Assembly: GCA_028711705.1 (NCBI GenBank)
Contig: JAQTRS010000002.1
Span: 9,617 to 73,616 of the forward strand
DNA: 64,000 nt
Reading direction: 5' to 3'
Origin: Candidatus Moraniibacteriota bacterium
GTDB lineage: Bacteria > Patescibacteriota > Minisyncoccia > Moranbacterales > UBA1568
The first letter of the stretch is position 1. Each line of letters begins with the position of its first letter. Both the position numbers and the translations under genes were made by a program. This document shows, in pieces, positions 4,304 through 56,121 of this stretch. The notes under the pieces were generated by a model. It was given only the letters and a program-made list of their open reading frames with translations, was not told where the DNA came from and did not search any database.

Positions 4304-7132
4304 CTAGATATACTTCCCAGTGAAGCTCTTCTTGCATTTCTTAAGTCCTGATGGGATGCCTGCGTAGACGATTTCTCCCCCGCCCTCGCCGCCCTCGGGT
4401 CCAAGGTCAATCACCCAGTCGGCGTGCTTGATCACATCGGTATTGTGCTCGACCACAACAATCGTATTTCCCTTATCGGCCAGCGCGTCCAAAACGATCA
4501 AGAGTTTTCGCGTATCCTCAAAGTGCAAGCCGATAGTCGGCTCATCAAGAATATAGAGCGTCTTACCGGTCGATTTCCGAGCCAATTCCGTCGCCAGTTT
4601 CACTCGCTGCGCTTCACCTCCCGAAAGGGCCGTGGCGCTCTGGCCGAGAATCAGATAGCCTAATCCCACTTCATCCAGCGCCCGCAGTTTCTCTTGAATC
4701 AGCGCATGGTCGCAGAAAAAGCTGCGCGCCTCGGAAACGGTCATATTGAGCACCTGGGATATATTCATCCCCCGATACTCTATAGCCAGTGTCTTTGCAT
4801 TGTAGCGCGTCCCTTGGCACTCCTCGCAGTCGACATAGACATCGGCCAGAAGATACATCTCCACCTTGCGCACCCCGCCACCCTGACAGACCTCGCAGCG
4901 GCCGCCGCGCATATTGAAACTGAAGTGGCTGGCATCATAGCCATCGCGCTTCGCCTCGGCCGTCTCGGCGAACAGATCGCGAATCGGAGAAAAAACCCCG
5001 GTATAGGTCGCGGCATTGGAACGCGGCGTGCGGCCGATCGGCGATTGGTTCACCGTAATCACCTTGTCGATATGCTGCAATCCGGTGATAGTCTTGTGCG
5101 TACCCACCCGCGTCTTGGCCTGATAGAAGTGTCTGGCCAAACTCTTGGAGAGGATGTCCTTAATCAGGGACGACTTTCCCGATCCGGACACGCCCGACAC
5201 CACCACGAATGCCTCCAGCGGTATCTGCACATCGACGTTTTTGAGATTATGCTCGGTGGCCCCGATAATCGATATGAATTTCTTCGCCTTGCGCGGCTTC
5301 CTGTTTTCCGGAGACACACTGATTTTTCCGGACAGGTATTGGCCCGTCAAACTCTTGGACTGCCACAGTTTCTTGGGCGTTCCCGAAAAGATCACCTCTC
5401 CCCCCTCGCGGCCCGCGCCCGGTCCCATATCCACGATCCAATCCGAAGCGGCCATGAGTGCCGGCTCATGTTCCACCACCACCAATGAATTCCCGTTTTC
5501 CCGAAGCGATTGGAGCGCGTGCACGAGCTTTTCCGTGTCGCGGCTATGCAGTCCGACGGACGGTTCGTCCAACACATACAAGATTCCCGTCAGATCCGAC
5601 TTCATCTGGATCGCCAAGCGGATACGCTGCGCTTCCCCGCCCGAAAGCGTTTCCGCACTACGGAAAATTTCAAGATACCCCAGTCCCACTTTTTCCACAG
5701 CCAAAAGACGCATATCCATTTCCTTGAGCAGGGTCGTCATAGCGTTTTTCAAATCTTTGGAAACTGTTTTGACCAGCATCTCCGAAAGACGCTGACGGAA
5801 AGCAGTCACACTGAGCGCCGCCATATCGTGGATAGAGCAATCCTCGATCAGAACCGAAAGGGATTCCTGTTTCAATCGCTTGCCTTGGCACGACGGACAG
5901 GTCCGCACGAGCATATACTTCTCGATCTCTTTGCGCAGGTGTTCCGATTTCGTCTCCTTGTGCTTCTTCTCCAATAACGGAACGATGCCGACAAACATCG
6001 CCTTCTGCTCCGCGGGCGAAAGCTTTTCTTTGCTTTTCAAAACCGCTTCTTCCCCATACAAAAGAATCTTCAGATGCTTGGCCGAGAATTTCTTGATCGG
6101 CGTCTTCATCGAAAAACCGCAACGTTCGGCAGCATCACGCAGGACGCTGAGCTGTCCTGTCTGCACCTGGCGCCCTTCGCTCGTCTTATTCCACGGACGT
6201 ATCGCTCCTTCAAGCAAAGATAGATTCTTGTTCGGGATGATAAGCTCCGGATCGAGCTCGAGCTTCACGCCCAGCCCCGAGCACGTTTCGCACGCACCTT
6301 CCGGACTGTTGAACGAAAAGATATTCGGCGCCAGTTCCGGCAGATGAACATCGCAGGCATGACAAACATATTCCTGACTGTACCAGTATTCTTCTTTTTC
6401 ATTCACCAAGAGGGTGAGCGCGCCATGCCCCAATTTGAAGGCCGTCTCGATAGAATCGAGCAGTCGCTCCTTGTCTGGTTTTTTCGTATCCAAAGTCAGC
6501 CGATCCACCGCTATCTCCATTTCGGAAAGCAGCATATCCGACGCATGCGGCAGCGCTTCGGAAATGAGCATAATCTGGCCATGGAAACGCACGCGGGCAT
6601 AGCCCCACTGCTCCACCTGTTTAAGCGCCTCCTTTTCCGTCTTTTTGAGCGTCTGCGGAAGCTTGGCAAGGAAAATGAAGAAGGTATTGTCCGGAAAATC
6701 CAAAATTTCCGCCAGGATTTCCTGACTGGTCTTTCGATGCAGCATACTGTGGCACTGCGGGCAATGCGGCACACCGGTCTTGGCATACAAAACACGGAGG
6801 TAATCATACACTTCGGTCAGGGTTCCCACGGTCGAACGCGGCGAACGGGAAATACTTTTCTGATCGATGGCGATCGCCGGACTTAAGTGATACATCGCGT
6901 CCACGTCGGGCTTGCCCAAAGATTCCATGAAGTTCCTCGCGTACGAGGAGAGCGACTCCATGTACCGCCTGTTGGATTCGGCATAGATCGTGTCGAAAGC
7001 CAAGGAAGATTTTCCCGAACCGGAAAGGCCGGTGATAACCACGAGCGAATCACGCGGGATTTCGACATCGATATTCTTGAGATTGTTGACACGGGCGCCC
7101 TTGATGATGATGTTATTATTTTTCTTTGCCAT
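4304..7132 (-). CDS. uvrA: Excinuclease ABC subunit A (UvrA, canonical class I, 942 aa)
   Basis: An N-terminal [14 protein letters not shown] motif and tandem ABC ATPase modules with zinc-finger Cys clusters. The length matches E. coli UvrA. Confidence 0.9.
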
Positions 7133-7334: not shown

Positions 7335-8588
7335 TCAGGCATTTGCCTCTTTCTTCCTTCTTCCTTTCGTGTTCCTCGCGCATTCCGGGCAACCCCTCCC
7401 GGCAAGACGATTATGTCCCGTCGCCCGGTATTCGTGTCCGCATGATTTCACCGGGCATTTCCACCACAAAAGCCGAGTCGTCCCGGCAAACACCTCCCAA
7501 ACATGCTTCGTGTTCCTCCTAGCATACTCGCTTGCCAATGCGGGATGTGTGAAAGACAGATTGTTTGTGGGCGTCAGCACCCGATGCGAACATGCCGGGC
7601 AACCGCCGCCATCGAACCGCGTGACTCCCAACGATTCCCATTCATACTCGCAGGTCCTGCATTTCCACCAAAACCGCTTGCTCGGATGAGGGCACACCTC
7701 GGTGGCCTGCTTCTCATTCTTTTCGGAATACTCCGCTGCCAATTTTGGATACTTCGCGGCAAGATTATTGGTGGAGGTCACGACACGGAAAGCGCAAGCG
7801 GGGCATTTGGTCTTATCCTTCAATGGCCACTGATAGCGACATTCATTACATTCCTGCAATGTTGCCGATACCGGTGTCGCATTGACCTTGGGTTTTCGCC
7901 CTTCCTTAAGCTTTTGCTTATACTGAGCACTGGCCACCCGTTTAGACAGAGTCTTCAGGTCATCGCCATCCTTCACACTCAGGCCTGCTGCACGAAGCTT
8001 TTGTTTCGCAAGTTTCAGTTTCAACTTCAGCTTCGATCGAGGTTTGGGCCTGGGTCTGGGTTTGATCTTGGGCCTCAGTTTGGGTTTGGACACCGGCTTA
8101 GGTTTTCGCCCGGGCTTTTTCTTAGGCCTGGGTTCGGGTTTTGGCTTGGGTTCAGGTTTTACTCTGGGCTCCGGCGCCGATTTCGGTTTCTTCTCCTTTT
8201 TTTGCACCGGCTTGGGTTTTGGTTTCGGTTTGGGCTCAGGTTTTGGTTTCGTTTTCCGTTCTTTCTTCACTCGAGGTTTTGCGTCAGCGCTTTTAGTACG
8301 TTTCCTTTTTACGAAACGCTTCTTGGAAGCCCGCGCTCCCGACTTGGTATCGGACCAGGAAACACTATGCAATGCGGCATCGTACTGCGCCGAGCGGCCG
8401 CTTGAATCGAATGTTTTCAGATACTCCCGAAACTCCCGCACGCAAAACGTCTTCATACCCCGTTCATTTTCATACACGAAATCCGAAGCGCCGAGCAATT
8501 GTGCCATTTCCAATAATGGCACGCCCTCCTCGGTAAGAGCCCTGATTTCCATGTCCGTTTCTTGCAAAATACTCAATGGACGATCCAT
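7335..8588 (-). CDS. Hypothetical protein with three regions: an N-terminal HTH-like segment, a long K/P-rich (KPKPEPKP…) histone-H1/AlgP-like low-complexity region, and two tandem treble-clef zinc-ribbon modules of the DUF4379 type (CPAC…NNL…YP.LA.EY…WWKC..C)
   Basis: The ribbon module is duplicated ([26 protein letters not shown]…[11 protein letters not shown] and [26 protein letters not shown]…[13 protein letters not shown]). About 95 aa of KP repeats. Confidence 0.6.
8030..8270. repeat. Imperfect 6-nt periodic tandem repeat (GGNTTNGG units) that encodes the KP-repeat tract of the zinc-ribbon protein
   Basis: Read directly: ggtttgggcctgggtctgggtttgatcttgggcctcagtttgggtttgg…. Confidence 0.6.
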
Positions 8589-8680: not shown

Positions 8681-9928
8681 TTATTTCTTGCCCTTCGTCA
8701 ATAAAAAGCTCTTGGCGCGGCGCTTGCGGTGGAAGGTGATGGCGAAGCGGTGCGCCTCGCTGTTGGCAAGCAAAATGGCATCGTGATATTTTTTTGCGAA
8801 CTCCCCTTCTCCCAGGATGCTTTTGGGATTATGGTGCTCGTCCTTCACCACGCCCACCACAGGGATAGCCATAGCGAATTGCTCAAGCACCGCATGCGCG
8901 ACGTTGATCTGCAGATCAAAACCGTCCACCACGATCAGATCGGGCATCCGCCATTCCGAATGCTTCAATCGCCGCATCAGTATTTCCTCGAGGTTCTTCA
9001 CATCGTTGTTGCGTTCTATCGAAAGCTTGAACTGCCGATATTCCTTCTTATCCGGCACTCCGCTCTCCAGCACCGTCATCACGCCCACCACATCACGTCC
9101 CGAAAGATGCGCCACATCATAGGCTTCGATGCGGAACGAATCCGCCGCATAGCTTTCGATCGCATCCTTGCGCAAGAGCGACACGTCATAGATATGGCTC
9201 AAAGCGAACAATGTTTTTTTGAGAGCCTGCGCCTTCTCGAATTCCAATCGCTTGGCATATTCCCCCATCTCCTTCTTCAGATACCTGACGATCATCGATT
9301 TCTTCCCCTCGAAAAAAAGCTTGATATTGCGGATGGTCTTGGCATAGTCTTTCGCCGTCACCGCACCGTCGCACACGCCTGGGCACAAGCCGAGCTGAGC
9401 ATTGAAGCACGGTTTTCCCGAAAGCGGTTTGCACGTGTCGCGATACGGGAAAATCTTGCGCACGATTTTCAACGCTTCCTTCAAAGAGCCTCCCTGCGGG
9501 AACGGCCCGAAGGTATACCTGATCTTCATATCCTTCTTGGCATCCATATCCCTCCCCCGCATGAGCAGCACGCGCGGAAAGGCCTCTTTGGTGATGACGA
9601 CGGAGTAGAAACTCTTATCGTCCTTCTCATCGGTGTTATAGGGCGGCTGATGCTTCTTGATGAGCGACGCTTCCAAAAGCAGCGCCTCCAATACCGAATC
9701 GGTCGTCTGCCACTTCAGGTCCGTCACCTTCTCAAGCATCGCCACGATCTTTGGTCCGCGGGTCGAGGAGATATCGTGCGAGAAATAGCTCCGCACCCGG
9801 GAACGGAGCGAGGTCGCCTTACCGATATACAGAATGCTCTTTCCTTCCATAAAGAAATACACCCCCGGGGTATCGGGAAGCTCTTTTTGAAACACCATTT
9901 CTTTTGTGTTGCCAAACTTCATTGACAT
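8681..9928 (-). CDS. uvrC: Excinuclease ABC subunit C homologue (GIY-YIG plus RNase-H-like endonuclease domain). Short at 415 aa and lacks the C-terminal (HhH)2 region
   Basis: An N-terminal GIY-YIG motif (GVYFFMEGKSILYIGKATSLRSRV). The central endonuclease region DVAHLSGRDVVGVMTV…YRQFKL matches the UvrC/Cho family. Confidence 0.7.
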   Translation of the reverse strand: MSMKFGNTKEMVFQKELPDTPGVYFFMEGKSILYIGKATSLRSRVRSYFSHDISSTRGPKIVAMLEKVTDLKWQTTDSVLEALLLEASLIKKHQPPYNTDEKDDKSFYSVVITKEAFPRVLLMRGRDMDAKKDMKIRYTFGPFPQGGSLKEALKIVRKIFPYRDTCKPLSGKPCFNAQLGLCPGVCDGAVTAKDYAKTIRNIKLFFEGKKSMIVRYLKKEMGEYAKRLEFEKAQALKKTLFALSHIYDVSLLRKDAIESYAADSFRIEAYDVAHLSGRDVVGVMTVLESGVPDKKEYRQFKLSIERNNDVKNLEEILMRRLKHSEWRMPDLIVVDGFDLQINVAHAVLEQFAMAIPVVGVVKDEHHNPKSILGEGEFAKKYHDAILLANSEAHRFAITFHRKRRAKSFLLTKGKK

Positions 9929-10081
9929 AAATGCGGAAGTGTTATAGAATGCAGGAGCAGTTTTTTAACAACCCTGGTTTGATTAAAGTTAATTAAACCA
10001 CATTATAGGAGAAATACGCAATATGATGCCCATTCGTTTGCAACGAGAAATCCACGTCTTTATAATAAAAGGAAAGAAAAA

Positions 10082-10567
10082 ATGAGTACGATAATCGATT
10101 TTTGCAACAGGAACCGCGGGTCACACTGGTGGCTCATGATGATGTTCGCATCAATAATGATACCGTTGTTTGCTATATTCTACACGCTCTATCAATCCCT
10201 GGGGTTCACCCCTCAATTGATGGCGAAACTGATTATAGGATGCGACTACTCCGTCATCGAGTCCCTTTGGATCAATACCGGCCTCCAATGCGAAAACCTC
10301 TTTTCCATGGGAGCTATCATGAAAAACACGCCGTTCGCGCTGGATATCATGCTCCTTTATTGCATGACTTTCTCGACAACGTTTTTCCGTATTTGGAAGG
10401 GTCAGGTTTTCTTATCGGACCCGTCCACGGAATTCTGCGGTTGGAGCGTGCTTATCATGAGATTCAACTCCGAAGAAGAAGTTTCTTTTTCCACATTTCC
10501 TTTTATGAAAAAAGGCTACTGGCTCCAGCCGATTGAAAATTCAAAACAATTCGAGCTGGCAAAATAA
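10082..10567 (+). CDS. Hypothetical membrane protein (161 aa)
   Basis: Third-position C/G bias fits the genome, unlike the overlapping 10102-10536 frame. One clear transmembrane segment and an AGGAAAG SD. There is no homology clue. Confidence 0.35.
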   Translation: MSTIIDFCNRNRGSHWWLMMMFASIMIPLFAIFYTLYQSLGFTPQLMAKLIIGCDYSVIESLWINTGLQCENLFSMGAIMKNTPFALDIMLLYCMTFSTTFFRIWKGQVFLSDPSTEFCGWSVLIMRFNSEEEVSFSTFPFMKKGYWLQPIENSKQFELAK

Positions 10568-10585
10568 TATACACCTCTCAACAAT

Positions 10586-10630
10586 CCCGCTATCGCTTAA
10601 CGAGCGCTCTGGCGGGGTTTCTATTTCACA
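10586..10630 (+). terminator. Weak stem-loop (CCCGC…GCGGG) followed by a T-rich run after the 10082-10567 ORF
   Basis: A 5-bp GC stem with a 21-nt loop, then GTTTCTATTT. Confidence 0.25.
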
Positions 10631-10681: not shown

Positions 10682-10710
10682 TTGACATATACGCTACACT
10701 ATGCTATAAT
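10682..10710 (+). promoter_or_regulatory. Consensus sigma70-type promoter TTGACA-17-TATAAT with an extended-10 TG, upstream of the small lipopeptide ORF
   Basis: TTGACA at 10682-10687, TATAAT at 10705-10710, and TGc immediately before the -10. Confidence 0.55.
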
Positions 10711-10786
10711 CGACCGTTGCTTTGAATGATCAAACAACACTCAATACCACTGGCTTTTTAACAAAAATTCTCAAAGGAGAATCGTC

Positions 10787-10918
10787 ATGCAAGAAGACAC
10801 CCGGATCAATCTCGGCATACTGATTTCCGTTATGCTGTTAATAGTATTCATTGCGATAGCATGCAATAAAACGGACAAAACTGAGCAAATCGCTCCGTCA
10901 ACGCTTTCTATCCGATAG
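10787..10918 (+). CDS. Small (43 aa) lipoprotein-like peptide (MQEDTRINLGILISVMLLIVFIAIA|CNKTDKTEQIAPSTLSIR)
   Basis: SD AAAGGAG. The N terminus is hydrophobic and ends in the lipobox-like AIAC. Hand-translated; under 60 aa, so absent from the ORF track. Confidence 0.4.
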   Translation: MQEDTRINLGILISVMLLIVFIAIACNKTDKTEQIAPSTLSIR

Positions 10919-10920
10919 CA

Positions 10921-10949
10921 TCGACAAACGGCTTTTCTTATGCTATATT
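10921..10949 (+). promoter_or_regulatory. Near-consensus promoter TCGACA-17-TATATT (extended-10 TGcTATATT) upstream of the second small ORF
   Basis: Read directly. The -10 context ATGCTATAwT is shared with the promoter at 10682. Confidence 0.45.
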
Positions 10950-10989
10950 CGAAAGGCTAGTAACTTAAAAACTCTGGAGGAAAAGAAAC

Positions 10990-11154
10990 ATGACTTCCGA
11001 AAACGTTGAAAAATGGCTCGAGACTATCGCCGCAAGAGAGGAAACTCAGACCTCGCCGAAAGTGAGACCATCATCACCGCAAGCACTGGAAATCCTTGAT
11101 GGAGCCGATGATCTATATCATTGCCTCGCTGATCAAGATCCGATTGCTCAATAA
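10990..11154 (+). CDS. Small hypothetical protein (54 aa, MTSENVEKWLETIAAREETQ…)
   Basis: SD GGAGG 8 nt upstream. Its N terminus is paralogous to the next ORF (MT-x-E-x3-KW-x-E-x-I). Confidence 0.4.
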   Translation: MTSENVEKWLETIAAREETQTSPKVRPSSPQALEILDGADDLYHCLADQDPIAQ

Positions 11155-11166
11155 TAGGAGAAGAAT

Positions 11167-11343
11167 ATGACTCCCGAAGCACACCGCAAATGGCGGGAAG
11201 ACATTGAAAAAATTCCAATATCTGAGACTCGCGAGATTTTGCTTCGCCATCATAGGCGGATCATTCCGGTTCTCAAAGAACCGATTCGTTTTACAAGTCA
11301 TGCCGAGTTGACACAAACGCCAGAAAAAGAACATATGGACTGA
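11167..11343 (+). CDS. Small hypothetical protein (58 aa, MTPEAHRKWREDIEKIPISETRE…)
   Basis: SD AGGAGA. It is paralogous to the 10990-11154 ORF and is followed by a terminator. Confidence 0.4.
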   Translation: MTPEAHRKWREDIEKIPISETREILLRHHRRIIPVLKEPIRFTSHAELTQTPEKEHMD

Positions 11344-11370
11344 AACATAGTCCCTGGCACCATACATCAG

Positions 11371-11408
11371 AAACAACGCCCGATAGCAATCCTGTCGGGC
11401 GGTTTTTT
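11371..11408. terminator. Rho-independent terminator (CGCCCGA-11nt-TCGGGCG then TTTTTT) that ends the small-ORF cluster. The uvrA2 stop lies at its T-tract edge
   Basis: A 7-bp GC-rich stem with a 6-T tract on the plus strand and A-rich sequence on the other side. Confidence 0.6.
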
Positions 11409-13956
11409 ATATACTCAGCACCCGTTTCAGGTATTCGCCGGTGTGTGAGCCTTTGGCATTAGCAACCTGTTCGGGCGTTCCCTTGGCGACCACTTTGCCG
11501 CCGCCTGATCCGCCTTCGGGTCCGATATCGATAAGATAGTCGGAACTTTTGATCACATCCATATTGTGCTCGATGAGAATCACCGAATTGCCCTTGTCCA
11601 CCAAACGCTGCAAAATCTCGATCAATTTTTTCACGTCCTCGTAGTGCAGGCCGATGGTCGGTTCATCCAAAAGATAAATCGTGCGCTGCAAATGCGGGCG
11701 ATAGAGTTCCGAAGATATCTTGATACGCTGCGCTTCCCCGCCCGAAAGCGTCGTGGCGGATTGACCAAGCTCCAGGTATTCCAAACCGACATCCCGAAGC
11801 GTCTTGAGCCGATCGGCGATGGCCGGGATATCCTTGAAGAATTCCGAGGCTTCCTCGACCGTCATCTTGAGCACATCGTAGATACTCTTTTTCTTATACT
11901 TCACCTCGAGCGTCTCCTTGGTGAAACGCTTGCCATCGCAAACATCGCACGGCACATAGACCGTCGGCAGAAAGTGCATCTCCACCGCGATCTCGCCATT
12001 CCCCTGACAGGTCTCGCAGCGCCCTCCCGGAACATTGAACGAGAATCGCCCAACCTTCCACCCGCGCACGCGAGCCTCGGCCGTCGAGGCATACAAATCG
12101 CGCACATGCGACCACATGCCGGTATAGGTTGCCGGATTGGAGCGTGGCGTGCGTCCGATCGGCGACTGATCGATCATCACGGCCCGGGTCAGGTATTCCG
12201 TCCCGCTCAGGCTCTTGCAATTGATGGCCTTATTATCTTTGTAGCGGCGATCGAAGCGCGCCTGCAGATTCTTGTGCACGATTTCATACAGAAATGACGA
12301 TTTCCCCGATCCGGACACGCCCGTCACGGTGATCAAACGCCCAAGCGGGATATCCACGTCCAAGTTCCGGATATTGAACACGCTGCCCCCGCGGACCTTG
12401 AGCGCGCCTTTTTCTTTGGTACGACGCACGGTCGGAACCTGGATTTTTTTCTCACCGCGAAGATACGAGAGCGTTACCGATCCCGATGCATTCGTCTTGG
12501 CCGTCAGCAATTGCTCCAGATCCCCCGACACCACGATATTGCCGCCATGCACGCCGGCCCCCGGTCCGATGTCGACCAGGTAGTCCGAGGCATAGATGGT
12601 GTCCTCGTCGTGCTCCACCACGATAATCGTGTTGCCCAGCTCGCGCAGACGTTTGAGAGTCGCAATAAGACGGTCATTGTCGCGCTGGTGCAGACCGATG
12701 GTCGGTTCATCCAATACATACAAGGCACCCACCAGCTGCGAACCGAGCTGCGACGCCAAACGGATGCGCTGCGCCTCCCCGCCCGAAAGGGTGTTGGCGC
12801 GCCGATCGAGCGAAAGGTAGTCCAAGCCGACATTCAACAGAAACTGCAGGCGGCTTTCGATTTCCTTCACCACCACGGCGGAAATTTTCTCCTCGCGCTC
12901 GGTCAATTCGAGCGTGGAAATGAACTCATAGGCGTCCCGGATGGTCGAGGCGGTATAGTCGATGATATTCTTGTCCCCCACCAAGACGAACAGAGCCTCC
13001 TCACGCAAACGGTGGCCATGGCAATCCTCGCAGACTTCCTCGCCGAAAAAGTGCTTGGTTCCCAAACCGTTGCATGTCGGGCAGGCGCCGTAGGGAGAAT
13101 TGAAACTGAACAGTCGCGGCTCCACCTCCGGATAGGAAAACCCATCATAGGGGCAGGAGAACTTCGACGACATCACGCGCTCTTCCCCGTCGAGGACGAT
13201 ACGGATCAACCCTTCGGTTTCCTCGAGCGCCTTGTCTATCGCCTCGTTCAATCGCTCCTGCGATCCGAACGCGTCGCTTTGAAATTCATCGAGCACGATC
13301 TCATCCACCAGCATATCGATATCATGCTTCTTGTTCTTGGACAGCACAACCTGATCGCGCAGGCTGCTCCGCACGCCGTCGATACGAGCCTCCACATATC
13401 CCTTGCTCAAGAAATCATACAGCATCTGATAATACTCCCCCTTGCGTCCGCGCACGATCGGCGCCCAGACTTGCAGCGTCGCAGGGACCTTGCTTTTCGC
13501 TTCGGGTTTTTCCTTGCGGTCGCTCACCATATCCACGATGAAATTCACCATCTCTTCGCTCGAGAGTTTCTTGATTTCCCGATTGCACACCAGACAATGC
13601 GGCCGCCCGATACGGGCATAGAGCACGCGCAAATAGTCATAGATTTCGGTGATGGTCGCCACCGTCGAGCGCGGATTGGACGAGCGGGATTTCTGGTCGA
13701 TGGAAATCGCAGGCGACAGCCCGGCAATCTCGTCCACATCCGGCTTCTGGAACTGATGCAGAAATTGCCGCGCATAGGTCGAGAGTGATTCCACGTAGCG
13801 GCGCTGCCCCTCGGCGAAAATGGTATCGAACGCCAAAGAGGACTTGCCCGACCCAGACAAACCCGTAAACACGATCATCTTGTTGCGAGGCATTTCGACC
13901 GTGATATTCTTGAGATTGTGCGTCCGAGCGCCCCGGACGATGATCGTATCCTGCAT
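11407..13956 (-). CDS. Second UvrA-family ABC ATPase (849 aa), about 93 aa shorter than the neighbouring UvrA. Candidate class II / UvrA2-like paralogue
   Basis: The N terminus [28 protein letters not shown] and tandem ABC modules resemble UvrA. The shorter length suggests the UvrB-binding/insertion domains are reduced. Confidence 0.8.
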   Translation of the reverse strand: MQDTIIVRGARTHNLKNITVEMPRNKMIVFTGLSGSGKSSLAFDTIFAEGQRRYVESLSTYARQFLHQFQKPDVDEIAGLSPAISIDQKSRSSNPRSTVATITEIYDYLRVLYARIGRPHCLVCNREIKKLSSEEMVNFIVDMVSDRKEKPEAKSKVPATLQVWAPIVRGRKGEYYQMLYDFLSKGYVEARIDGVRSSLRDQVVLSKNKKHDIDMLVDEIVLDEFQSDAFGSQERLNEAIDKALEETEGLIRIVLDGEERVMSSKFSCPYDGFSYPEVEPRLFSFNSPYGACPTCNGLGTKHFFGEEVCEDCHGHRLREEALFVLVGDKNIIDYTASTIRDAYEFISTLELTEREEKISAVVVKEIESRLQFLLNVGLDYLSLDRRANTLSGGEAQRIRLASQLGSQLVGALYVLDEPTIGLHQRDNDRLIATLKRLRELGNTIIVVEHDEDTIYASDYLVDIGPGAGVHGGNIVVSGDLEQLLTAKTNASGSVTLSYLRGEKKIQVPTVRRTKEKGALKVRGGSVFNIRNLDVDIPLGRLITVTGVSGSGKSSFLYEIVHKNLQARFDRRYKDNKAINCKSLSGTEYLTRAVMIDQSPIGRTPRSNPATYTGMWSHVRDLYASTAEARVRGWKVGRFSFNVPGGRCETCQGNGEIAVEMHFLPTVYVPCDVCDGKRFTKETLEVKYKKKSIYDVLKMTVEEASEFFKDIPAIADRLKTLRDVGLEYLELGQSATTLSGGEAQRIKISSELYRPHLQRTIYLLDEPTIGLHYEDVKKLIEILQRLVDKGNSVILIEHNMDVIKSSDYLIDIGPEGGSGGGKVVAKGTPEQVANAKGSHTGEYLKRVLSI

Positions 13957-13960
13957 AGGA

Positions 13961-13988
13961 TTGACTTTTAACCCAAATCTGCTATATT
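13961..13988 (+). promoter_or_regulatory. Promoter TTGACT-16-TATATT for small paralogue gene A
   Basis: Read directly; the arrangement matches the promoter at 14542-14570. Confidence 0.5.
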
Positions 13989-21777: not shown

Positions 21778-22466
21778 TGCTTCGCCGCCAATAAACGCTC
21801 CGCCAACGCCACATCATTGGGATTGCCGAAAGGCAGCCATCGGGTTGTCACTTCGACCATAACGGGATAATCCAAGCTCATCTTGACCAATGTCTGAGGC
21901 AAACCGAATTCCGTCTCGGATATCGGCACGGGCGGATAGGAGAAGAAATCCGTATTGAGAATATAGGCACCCGTATTCACCAACCCCTCCCCCAATCGAT
22001 GCGGCCGTTCTACCACACCCATCAGATGGTTCGCATCGTCAATCGTCACCAATCCAAAAGAGGCTGCATCCTGCGTATAATAACCGAGCAGGGCCAAGGG
22101 ATGCTGCATCAATTTCTCAATATCTTCGGTAGCATATATATCATCGCCCATCGTCACCAAGAATCGATCATACACCAGATCCTTCACGAAGTGCACCGCG
22201 CCTGCCGTACCGTTGAGCTCTCGCTGCTCGACATAGGTTATGGTCCGCCCGTTCCATTCATCGCCGAAATACTCCGTAATGACTTCCTTCCTGTATCCCA
22301 CAACCAAAATAACCTCATGGAAAGATGCGGGAAGCATATCTATCTTGTGTGCCAAAATGGGCAAACCCAGCACTTCGATCATCGGCTTCGGGAGTTCTTT
22401 CGTCAATTCACCCATACGGGTGCCCCGTCCAGCCGCCAAAATCACACATTGCATACCATTCATCAT
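21774..22466 (-). CDS. Sugar-1-phosphate nucleotidyltransferase (NTP_transferase family)
   Basis: The motif LAAGRGTRM (G-x-G-T-R); 230 aa; 4-nt overlap with the downstream gene. Confidence 0.75.
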   Translation of the reverse strand: MMNGMQCVILAAGRGTRMGELTKELPKPMIEVLGLPILAHKIDMLPASFHEVILVVGYRKEVITEYFGDEWNGRTITYVEQRELNGTAGAVHFVKDLVYDRFLVTMGDDIYATEDIEKLMQHPLALLGYYTQDAASFGLVTIDDANHLMGVVERPHRLGEGLVNTGAYILNTDFFSYPPVPISETEFGLPQTLVKMSLDYPVMVEVTTRWLPFGNPNDVALAERLLAAKQ

Positions 22467-22898
22467 TGAAGAATTACCTCACTTTTCCCATGTGCCGCCT
22501 TCATCCCGAGAAACAAAAACAGGATGGAGCGCGAATACGTTCCGCGTCATATCCTGCAATTTCCTCGCAAGCGACTTCCAACAACAACGATCCCGTTCCC
22601 GGTCTTAGGCATCCCTGAGACAGATTCAAAATACTGTCTTGCGCCAACAATCCTCGATCCCCCCTTCAATACTGGAACTATGATGGATATCTGCTTCATG
22701 CCCCTCAATACGGTATGTCGCTATTCGGTAGAAAAGCGCACTACAGATCGTTAAATAATTTCTTGCAAACCTTTCGTGTTGGTATTCTCTCTTGTCTGGT
22801 AATTACAGAATTGTATCAGCTGACCTGTATTTGTCAACAGAAAATAAGACCATAGATTGACAGGTTTGTCAGTTTTTGCGTTGGTATCGATACAAAAA

Positions 22899-55368: not shown

Positions 55369-56121
55369 ATGAACATGAAACTCCTCGCCACGGCGGCGGC
55401 AGTGCTCCTGCTTTCCGGATGCTCGCAAGAGGCGGCCACACCGCAAAAAACGACCCCAGAAGCGGACAGCGCCGTTTCCAAGGCGATAGACACGGTCGGA
55501 AAATCACGCGAGACCGTCGACGACGCGACCGCCAAGAAAAATGCCGAACTCGCGCAGGGCATGCCAGAAGAGGCCATCCCAACGAAAGACACTAAATCAT
55601 CTAACACCTCTACCGATATGCAACACGTAAACCAATACGACGGAGCTACCCTCCACACCAGCCAAGGCGACATCACCGTGAAGTTCTATAACGACGCCTC
55701 TCCTATCACCGTCAATAACTTCCTCAAGCTCGCTAGCGACAAGTTCTATGACGGTACGCGCTTCCATCGAGTCATCAAGGATTTCATGATCCAAGGCGGC
55801 GACCCGAATTCCAAAGATGCGGACTGGTCCAATGACGGCACCGGCGGACCCGGATATGCCTTCGCCGATGAGTTCAACAAGCACGCCCTCGTGAAAGGCT
55901 CCCTCGCCATGGCGAACTCGGGACCCAACACCAACGGATCACAGTTCTTCATTGTCACCGCCGCTTCCACGCCATGGCTCGATGGCAAGCACACGAATTT
56001 CGGAGAAGTGACCGGCGGCATGGACGTCGTCAGCGCGATCGAAGATGCGAAAGTGAACGCCAACGATCATCCATTGACGGATATCACCATCAAAAGCATC
56101 GACCTTATCAAGAAAAAATAA
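55369..56121 (+). CDS. Cyclophilin-type peptidyl-prolyl cis-trans isomerase, lipoprotein (LLLSGCS lipobox)
   Basis: FHRVIKDFMIQGGDP…GSQFFIV. Confidence 0.8.
   Translation: MNMKLLATAAAVLLLSGCSQEAATPQKTTPEADSAVSKAIDTVGKSRETVDDATAKKNAELAQGMPEEAIPTKDTKSSNTSTDMQHVNQYDGATLHTSQGDITVKFYNDASPITVNNFLKLASDKFYDGTRFHRVIKDFMIQGGDPNSKDADWSNDGTGGPGYAFADEFNKHALVKGSLAMANSGPNTNGSQFFIVTAASTPWLDGKHTNFGEVTGGMDVVSAIEDAKVNANDHPLTDITIKSIDLIKKK

Follow-up and report, generated by a model that had tools for sequence, protein, structure and literature searches.

Type I toxins belong to the small membrane peptides built around a single helix, of which Hok, Fst, TisB, and SidA are examples. SosA, YneA, ChiZ, and DivS are likewise small single-transmembrane proteins; they are encoded beside DNA-damage-response genes and are poorly conserved in sequence (PMC6851548). 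Genes of the SosA/YneA type lie divergent from or adjacent to lexA and are under LexA control (PMC6851548). Most broadly, genes of unknown function confined to one species or genus are the norm in the Patescibacteria: the AGNOSTOS catalogue holds 54,343 lineage-specific clusters of unknown function, most at species or genus rank and 45,788 of them at the species level (PMC9132574). Here we describe a cluster of three small open reading frames (ORF1, ORF2, and ORF3; 43, 54, and 58 amino acids [aa]) that lies between genes resembling uvrA and uvrC in contig JAQTRS010000002.1 of a Candidatus Moraniibacteriota bacterium. The window (the whole stretch of DNA that was analysed, 64,000 nucleotides [nt]) is Paceibacteria-like DNA from a metagenome-assembled genome (MAG) of the candidate phyla radiation (CPR, or Patescibacteria), the organism being ultra-small and uncultured.

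We consider it somewhat probable that the cluster is a genuine sigma-70-type transcription unit for three lineage-specific orphan small proteins, inside a variable uvrA-uvrC junction. On rough estimates, ORF2 is very probably a real gene; ORF3 is probably one; and for ORF1 the balance tips only slightly in that direction.

The three ORFs resemble the lineage-specific unknowns of the Patescibacteria (PMC9132574) in being restricted to a species or genus, in belonging to no Pfam family, and in coming from a CPR MAG. They differ in being unusually small (43-58 aa), in the legible layout of their promoters, ribosome-binding (Shine-Dalgarno, SD) sites, and terminator, and in their place at a defined junction; moreover, ORF1 is uncatalogued. 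ORF1 matches the type I toxins in size, in its single transmembrane helix with a charged tail, and in its strong dedicated promoter; however, searches for it turned up neither an antisense RNA gene nor a structured leader, and it would be co-transcribed with two soluble proteins. ORF1 is also comparable to SosA, YneA, ChiZ, and DivS, as a small single-transmembrane protein next to DNA-damage-response genes, but it lacks a neighbouring lexA, a LexA box, and a LysM domain or conserved extracellular segment, and its tail is far shorter than that of SosA (77 aa in full length).

Transcription and translation signals

The unit comprises the following features.

10682-10710, + strand: promoter P1, TTGACA-17-TATAAT with a TGn extended -10 element (12/12 match)
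10787-10918, + strand: ORF1, 43 aa, putative membrane or lipoprotein-like peptide, ATG start, unannotated in GenBank
10921-10949, + strand: internal promoter P2, TCGACA-17-TATATT with TGn (10/12), beginning 3 nt past the ORF1 stop
10990-11154, + strand: ORF2, 54 aa, acidic, GenBank PHT88_01750 (MDD5083647.1), hypothetical protein
11167-11343, + strand: ORF3, 58 aa, neutral and rich in His and Arg, GenBank PHT88_01755 (MDD5083648.1), hypothetical protein
11377-11408: intrinsic terminator (hairpin 11377-11401), a 10-bp GC-rich stem with a T-run on the + strand and an A-tract on the other side, abutting the uvrA stop

The PHT88 annotations belong to a 'Candidatus Moranbacteria' MAG, in a contig of 210,826 nt.

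Expression signals are present and above chance. Promoter-like sites of this strength number 12 in the 64 kb, and three of them, all on the + strand, lie in the 1.5-kb gap between uvrA and uvrC. The -10 block of P2 (TATGCTATATTCGA) equals its P1 counterpart at 13/14 positions, and P1 aligns with the promoter in the corresponding gap of the closest genome, that of the sister species L002 (63-67% identity, E = 0.005). The P1 leader is about 70 nt long, and the fold of 10717-10800 is not unusually structured (folding free energy [dG] -9.8, z = -0.28 against shuffles). Each ORF has its own SD site: AAGGAG at 10774-10779 with a 7-nt spacer for ORF1; GGAGG at 10976-10980 with a 9-nt spacer for ORF2; and AGGAG at 11156-11160 with a 6-nt spacer for ORF3. 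Dinucleotide shuffles of the gap contained on average 0.52 SD-preceded ATG ORFs of at least 40 aa, and the probability of finding three or more on one strand was 0.009 under a loose definition of the SD site.

Between ORF1 and ORF2 no terminator was found. The terminator past ORF3 folds with a dG of -19.9 kcal/mol on the + strand (z = -5.2) and of -16.2 on the - strand (z = -2.4). The stem is flanked by an A-tract and a T-tract and directly adjoins the uvrA stop, so it is probably bidirectional, ending both the operon and uvrA. An equivalent hairpin stands beside the uvrA stop of L002.

The original prediction, made from the letters of the window, is borne out on these points: three small SD-preceded ORFs with ATG starts on the + strand (SD cores of 5-6 nt, spacers of 6-9 nt); the two consensus promoters, both recovered by a promoter scan; a clean terminator at the end of the cluster; and a location between repair genes, the flanks being uvrC-like and uvrA-like.

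Conservation of ORF2

L002 shares 94% amino-acid identity with the window in UvrA and 76% in UvrC. The fraction of identical four-fold degenerate sites is 0.51 in uvrA and 0.47 in uvrC, so that neutral sites are near saturation. The uvrA-uvrC gap of L002 is laid out in the same way as that of the window. It contains, besides the terminator hairpin at the uvrA stop, a promoter, TTGACA...TGcTATCAT, whose -35 element is the reverse complement of the uvrC ATGTCAA, and three SD-led ORFs of 48, 69, and 77 aa, all called as genes (the first is counted here from the SD-proximal ATG; it is annotated as 53 aa). DNA alignment of the two gaps yields three segments only: the 3' end of uvrA with the terminator tail; the promoter; and the start of ORF2 (40 nt, at 78% identity and E = 1e-4).

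The 48-aa ORF encodes the homologue of ORF2, P0003, in the same position and orientation. The two proteins are 38% identical; their Smith-Waterman score is 61, whereas shuffled sequences average 23.5 (p <= 2e-4), and they agree in start codon, SD position, acidity, and approximate length. Over the first 13 codons the nucleotide identity is about 77%, and the nine differences are distributed 5:3:1 over codon positions 3:1:2 (manual count). Because protein and codon pattern are conserved though neutral sites are near saturation, there is good evidence that ORF2 is a conserved coding sequence under selection, and the sole conserved member of the operon. Conservation in related genomes, proposed earlier as a check on the cluster, was therefore found in part: the ORF2 frame is kept in L002 with differences mostly at third codon positions, whereas ORF1 and ORF3 have no homologue. 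Two candidate counterparts were tried and rejected, the 69-aa ORF of L002 as an orthologue of ORF3 (shuffle p = 0.75) and the 77-aa ORF as an orthologue of ORF1 (p = 0.82); neither pair shows a detectable relation.

Wider searches, covering about 15 billion proteins in all, added no member to this family, so that P0003 is the single homologue of ORF2. In a word-indexed search of 5.8 billion cluster representatives, ORF2 and ORF3 each retrieved only themselves. A profile of ORF2 retrieves just the window and L002 proteins, and when 1.84 billion representatives were searched exhaustively with a HMMER profile, the same two proteins came back, plus P0004 (1732 aa), which was rejected as a tandem-repeat artefact. 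A scan of JGI metagenomes with the ORF2 and ORF3 peptides found nothing; with the UvrA C-terminus as the query, no match exceeded 82% identity, leaving L002 as the only informative relative. Pfam, PHROGs, NCBIfam, and PADLOC gave nothing significant for any gap ORF, whether of the window or of L002.

L002 also contains, at 5776-5893, a run of N with the same promoter-bearing block of about 55 nt on both sides. This looks like a scaffolding artefact that adds about 170 nt to the uvrA-uvrC gap.

ORF2 and ORF3

The original prediction described both proteins as small and acidic. This fits ORF2, with an isoelectric point (pI) of 4.2; ORF3 is neutral (pI 7.0), with 11 Asp or Glu, 11 Lys or Arg, and five His residues. 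Neither protein has a membrane segment. AlphaFold2 predicts two helices for ORF2 (mean predicted local distance difference test [pLDDT] score of 66) and two helices plus a tail for ORF3 (mean pLDDT 72). A Foldseek search of the PDB with the ORF3 model, the one model searched, gave no match. Thus the profile and structure searches that had been suggested as a route to a family for ORF2 and ORF3 led to none.

The two proteins share the N-terminal start that had been pointed out, which can be written as the motif MT[SP]E...[KE]W.[ED].[IV]. The likeness is limited to residues 1-13, where 7/13 are identical in register (MTSENVEKWLETI versus MTPEAHRKWREDI). BLASTP returned no alignment of ORF2 with ORF3 at E <= 100, and the Smith-Waterman score of 31 corresponds to an unanchored shuffle p of 0.067. 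When N-termini were compared in register across 5,591 ORFs, a post hoc test, ORF3 was the top match to ORF2; with the L002 homologue as the query, ORF3 came second, behind ORF2 only. Moreover, among 161 sequences (about 1.2 Mb of related DNA), the motif was found only in ORF2, ORF3, and the L002 homologue. The view that ORF2 and ORF3 are paralogues is thereby narrowed: an N-terminal module of 13 residues is shared beyond chance, albeit by a post hoc test, but full-length similarity is not significant. To judge from this pattern, ORF3 would most likely have arisen by a partial duplication of the ORF2 5' end; the other possibility is a full duplication that has diverged heavily.

ORF1

ORF1 consists of the residues MQEDTR, a hydrophobic helix of 19 residues, AIAC, and a polar tail of 18 aa. 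Its hydrophobicity over residues 7-25 reaches 2.85 in a 19-residue Kyte-Doolittle window. The ORF falls between consecutive GenBank locus tags, and its sequence occurs in no protein collection searched.

Precursors of lipoproteins typically have a positively charged n-region and a Leu-rich -3 position. ORF1 was compared with the lipobox pattern {DERK}(6)-[LIVMFWSTAG](2)-[LIVMFYSTAGCQ]-[AGS]-C, with the Cys at positions 15-35 and a Lys or Arg among the first seven residues. It satisfies this pattern (…FIAIAC, with the lipobox at residues 23-26, Cys26, and Arg6); however, the pattern discriminates weakly, since it also matches several clearly spurious ORFs of the window. The resemblance to lipoprotein signal peptides (PROSITE PS51257-type, substrates of the Lgt/LspA route) lies in the hydrophobic h-region, in [A][I][A]C at 23-26, and in the early Arg. 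The differences are an n-region whose two acidic residues and one basic residue give a net negative side-chain charge; Ala in place of Leu at -3; a mature part of just 18 aa; and sub-threshold matches to hidden Markov models (HMMs). Matches to lipoprotein signal models have E values of 0.012-0.19, all far under the cut-offs and confined to the hydrophobic stretch; the best is NF033817 (15.6 bits against a cut-off of 22), and the others reach 10-15 bits against 33-200. Outside this group, DUF4969 matches at E = 0.008 (16.9 against a cut-off of 31.4), and the NCBIfam SosA model NF041581 at E = 0.14 (12.4 bits, where the cut-off is 60), this last match being confined to the transmembrane segment. 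The earlier description of ORF1 as lipoprotein-like is accurate for the hydrophobic helix, the AIAC that follows it, and the pattern, but ORF1 stays below the cut-off in every lipoprotein model.

Elsewhere in the window, at 55375-56121 on the + strand, an ORF of 248 aa is headed by a lipoprotein-type N-terminus, MKLLATAAAVLLLSGC. This N-terminus is a classical one (LLSGC) and suggests that the organism makes lipoproteins and has the Lgt/LspA pathway.

The uvrA-uvrC junction

The neighbours of the three-ORF unit are as follows.

8681-9928, - strand: uvrC-like gene, 415 aa, with GIY-YIG, UVR, and RNase H endonuclease domains
9922-9950, + strand: promoter P0 (11/12), overlapping the uvrC start codon
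10082-10567, + strand: ORF of 161 aa, predicted membrane protein, GenBank PHT88_01745
10583-10619, + strand: terminator of the 161-aa unit (-19.7 kcal/mol, z = -4.35)
11407-13956, - strand: uvrA-like gene, 849 aa, with the interaction domain only

In the window, the junction is thus occupied by an insert of 1,478 nt, with its genes on the opposite (+) strand. It is made of two + strand units, that of the 161-aa membrane-protein ORF and that of ORF1, ORF2, and ORF3, and its GC content is 39-45%, compared with 52-58% in the flanks. The stretch from 9.9 to 10.7 kb had been taken as non-coding; it contains the 161-aa ORF with a promoter and terminator of its own. (The GenBank product PHT88_01745 is annotated as 143 aa, starting at Met19.) This ORF has no match in Pfam, PHROG, NCBIfam, or PADLOC, and none in a phage collection or in plasmids by tblastn, nor in an IMG/VR scan; neither L002 nor any of 160 related loci has a counterpart of it.

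UvrC relatives were all found in Patescibacteria MAGs, of the Paceibacteria, Yonathbacteria, and Taylorbacteria type. In these relatives the two genes share a strand, with uvrA immediately upstream of uvrC. Across 57 loci the gap between the two genes ranges from -24 to +1899 nt, with one gap of 4.7 kb, and it is shorter than 100 nt in 15/57. Where it is filled, the contents are usually SD-led ORFs on the opposite strand, beginning 60-150 nt from the uvrC start, and several relatives have a promoter-like site over the uvrC start codon. The families in the gaps differ. Seven Yonathbacteria-like genomes (gaps of L007, L009, L015, L019, L023, L042, and L076) share a family of unknown function of 122-215 aa; one pair of gap proteins measures 218 and 227 aa; the gap of L032 (4182-5885, - strand) encodes small membrane proteins of 100-124 aa, three or four in number and paralogous to one another; and the gap of L066 holds a 443-aa ORF that, by eye, resembles UDP-glucose dehydrogenase. 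Because the gap contents are unrelated between lineages, the junction is, on the sequences compared, a variable locus, and the insert of the window is one lineage-specific filling.

Other origins of the insert were considered and rejected. The ORFs are not recognizable as what is left of a longer ancestral gene: when 145 ORFs of at least 60 aa from the gaps of relatives were compared with the window gap by tblastn, nothing significant emerged. Nor do they point to a phage, plasmid, or other mobile origin, since ORF2 and ORF3 had no tblastn match in the phage collection, the concatenated ORF1-3 had none in IMG/VR, and no PHROG match was significant. PADLOC found no defence system. The possibility that the cluster is a structured RNA or a riboswitch, rather than a set of genes, was checked against Rfam: the only match, to the archaeal C/D-box snoRNA sR45, is at chance level (21 bits versus 40), a window-wide search gave nothing, and no tRNAs were found.

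Several further features of the surroundings may be recorded. The window has two UvrA paralogues within 10 kb, at 4304-7132 and 11407-13956, both on the - strand; the former, of 942 aa, has both the DNA-binding and the interaction domain of UvrA. Along the - strand the genes run uvrA (849 aa), insert, uvrC, a gene for a DUF4379 zinc-finger protein (7335-8588), and uvrA (942 aa). In L002 a gene for a 941-aa UvrA follows uvrC directly, and there is no DUF4379 gene. The strong + strand promoters at 9922-9950 and 13961-13988 lie on or beside the starts of two - strand genes: uvrC, whose ATG is at 9928 or 9922, and uvrA, whose ATG is at 13956. At uvrC, L002 shows this arrangement too. Upstream of uvrC on the - strand, no sigma-70 site of at least 9/12 and no SD site was found; uvrC may have a very short leader or be expressed from a leaderless mRNA. 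The leader of the 161-aa gene contains an SD-led upstream ORF of 20 aa (10023-10085, + strand). The initiation region of this upstream ORF, ATTATAGGAGAA…AATATGATGCCC (10002-10085), is similar to that of ORF3, ATAATAGGAGAAGAATATGACTCCC; the similarity may be due to chance.

Interpretation

Under the reading that we favour, transcription from P1 would begin near 10717 and run through all three ORFs; because no terminator follows ORF1, P1 transcripts would carry ORF1-ORF2-ORF3. P2 would add transcripts of ORF2 and ORF3. Because ORF3 starts 12 nt past the ORF2 stop with its own SD site, these two would be co-expressed. In favour of this reading, a coupled pair running from acidic to basic recurs in L002 (pI 4.05 and 8.0, with a 4-nt overlap). 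Co-translated, the products would be two-helix cytoplasmic proteins, which likely pair with one another or act on a common partner through the N-terminal amphipathic motif. ORF1, if translated, would be inserted in the membrane as a single-helix peptide of 43 aa, possibly lipid-modified at Cys26. The shared terminator would end both the operon and uvrA, and the layout would separate uvrC from uvrA transcription. The role would then be that of a co-acting pair of small cytoplasmic helical proteins with an optional membrane peptide, accessory and lineage-specific. What ties the cluster to nucleotide excision repair is its location alone, and no link was found to toxin-antitoxin, defence, phage, SOS, or signalling systems.

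Several observations count against this reading. The codon-usage scores of all three ORFs fall in the lowest 2.5-10% of true-gene chunks, and their GC content at third codon positions (GC3) is 0.38-0.50, versus 0.61 for the genome. When all six frames are scored, ORF1 and ORF2 each do best in their own frame, but ORF3 does not. Such codon usage would suit young or acquired genes; for ORF1 and ORF3 it would suit non-genes as well. None of the three was called by the gene caller applied to an identical Logan contig (L001, from SRR22315508), and the GenBank annotation pipeline, PGAP, skipped ORF1. Neither ORF1 nor ORF3 has a counterpart in L002 or a homologue in the 160 related loci, so that the case for translating them comes from their signals only. 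Finally, the structure models are of low to moderate confidence, having been made from one or two sequences.

The same observations lend themselves to a different account, in which the ORFs are largely non-coding by-products and the strong promoters and bidirectional terminator serve to insulate or regulate uvrA and uvrC. Convergent transcription would oppose read-through from uvrA, and divergent promoters would act over the uvrC start; ORF1, ORF3, and possibly all three ORFs would be fortuitous, or functionless proto-genes. Besides the atypical codon usage with its low GC3, the absence of ORF1 and ORF3 even from L002, and the gene caller that passed over all three, this account can invoke the position of P0 over the uvrC ATG, the similar promoter that abuts the uvrA ATG, and the contiguity of uvrA and uvrC in relatives (the 15 of 57 loci with a gap below 100 nt). 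We nevertheless regard it as unlikely. Three consecutive, non-overlapping ATG ORFs on one strand, each with a well-spaced SD site, are improbable by chance (p about 0.009); the ORF2 protein is conserved despite near-saturated neutral sites; and the gap of L002 is likewise filled by three SD-led ORFs.

It is similarly doubtful that the junction is a hot spot of gene birth in this Paceibacteria lineage. A strong outward promoter over the uvrC start, together with the bidirectional terminator, would keep the AT-rich spacer constantly transcribed, and small SD-led ORFs would arise, duplicate, and turn over in genus-level time. ORF3 would then stem from the ORF2 5' end; ORF1 and the 161-aa ORF would be new in the species of the window, as the 69- and 77-aa ORFs would be in L002; and ORF2 would be the one proto-gene that became fixed under selection.

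The original prediction proposed a secreted lipopeptide or signalling peptide with partner or immunity-like proteins and, as a fallback, some other small-protein system. The fallback agrees with the reading favoured here. The first proposal, in which ORF1 would be a pre-lipoprotein or pro-peptide cut at Cys26 to give an 18-aa lipopeptide signal, with ORF2 and ORF3 as partner or immunity proteins, strikes us as quite improbable. Within the cluster, the lipobox of ORF1 is the only point in its favour; lipoprotein-like N-termini elsewhere in the window, as at 55375, and the weak matches to lipoprotein signal models and DUF4969 lend it some further support. All of those matches, however, are far under curated cut-offs, and the net negative n-region and the Ala at -3 are atypical. 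ORF2 and ORF3 lack a membrane segment and similarity to immunity proteins; L002 keeps ORF2 with no counterpart of ORF1; and no gene for a transporter, peptidase, processing, export, or sensor protein lies nearby.

Much the same low probability attaches to a toxin-antitoxin system, in one of two forms: ORF1 would be a membrane toxin of type I, or else the acidic ORF2 and a basic ORF3 would make up a miniature type II-like pair. A peptide of fewer than 60 aa with one transmembrane helix, a charged tail, and a very strong promoter suits the first form; yet near ORF1 the - strand has no promoter-like site of at least 9/12, the only one in the cluster (11276-11249) lying inside ORF3, and Rfam gave nothing. 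The unstructured P1 leader also speaks against a type I toxin, and ORF1 is not a stand-alone unit. The second form draws on the layout, with ORF2 and ORF3 12 nt apart, and on its recurrence in L002, where the 48- and 69-aa ORFs overlap by 4 nt and have pI values of 4.05 and 8.0: each would be a coupled pair, acidic then basic. This layout is suggestive, but the pI of ORF3 is neutral rather than basic, and typical members are longer than either protein; ORF2 matches no DNA-binding domain; and no relation between ORF3 and the 69-aa ORF is detectable. For either form, Pfam, NCBIfam, and PADLOC hold no matching toxin or antitoxin family.

Least probable of all, to the point of being hardly credible, is that ORF1 is a DNA-damage-associated membrane inhibitor of division like SosA, YneA, SidA, or DidA: a small single-transmembrane protein between uvrA and uvrC, with its weak SosA match, would fit a class whose members share little sequence similarity (PMC6851548), but that match reaches 12 bits against a cut-off of 60 over hydrophobic residues only, the C-terminal tail is just 18 aa, ORF1 is absent from L002, no lexA is adjacent (the + strand neighbours of ORF1 are the 161-aa ORF and ORF2), and P1 and P2 contain no LexA box of the GAAC-N4-GTTC (Cheo) or CTGT-N8-ACAG (Escherichia coli) type, although the LexA motif of CPR bacteria may differ.

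Novelty and significance

ORF2 and ORF3 were already known, as deposited hypothetical proteins. New are the unannotated membrane peptide of 43 aa; the two-member ORF2 family; the N-terminal motif shared by ORF2 and ORF3; and the recognition that the junction is a variable locus within a conserved frame of promoter and terminator. If the unit is real, one unannotated 43-aa membrane peptide and a two-member family of small proteins would join the lineage-specific unknowns of the CPR, and the uvrA-uvrC junction would offer a natural place for studying the gain and loss of tiny genes in reduced genomes. The cluster does not touch any established mechanism, nor any open question about DNA repair, signalling, or defence. 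It is of value as a clean, well-delimited test case for the validation of small proteins, rather than as a discovery by itself.

Minor observations

The sole perfect CTGT-N8-ACAG of the window is at 22825, before a nucleoside triphosphate (NTP)-transferase gene and not before lexA. In the same region (22466-22840, - strand), a perfect palindrome, CTGTATTTGTCAACAG, overlaps the -35 element of a strong promoter, TTGACA-16-TACAAT with TGn. Between this promoter and the NTP-transferase gene lies a leader of about 340 nt with no Rfam match. Palindrome and leader could represent an operator plus an uncharacterised leader element.

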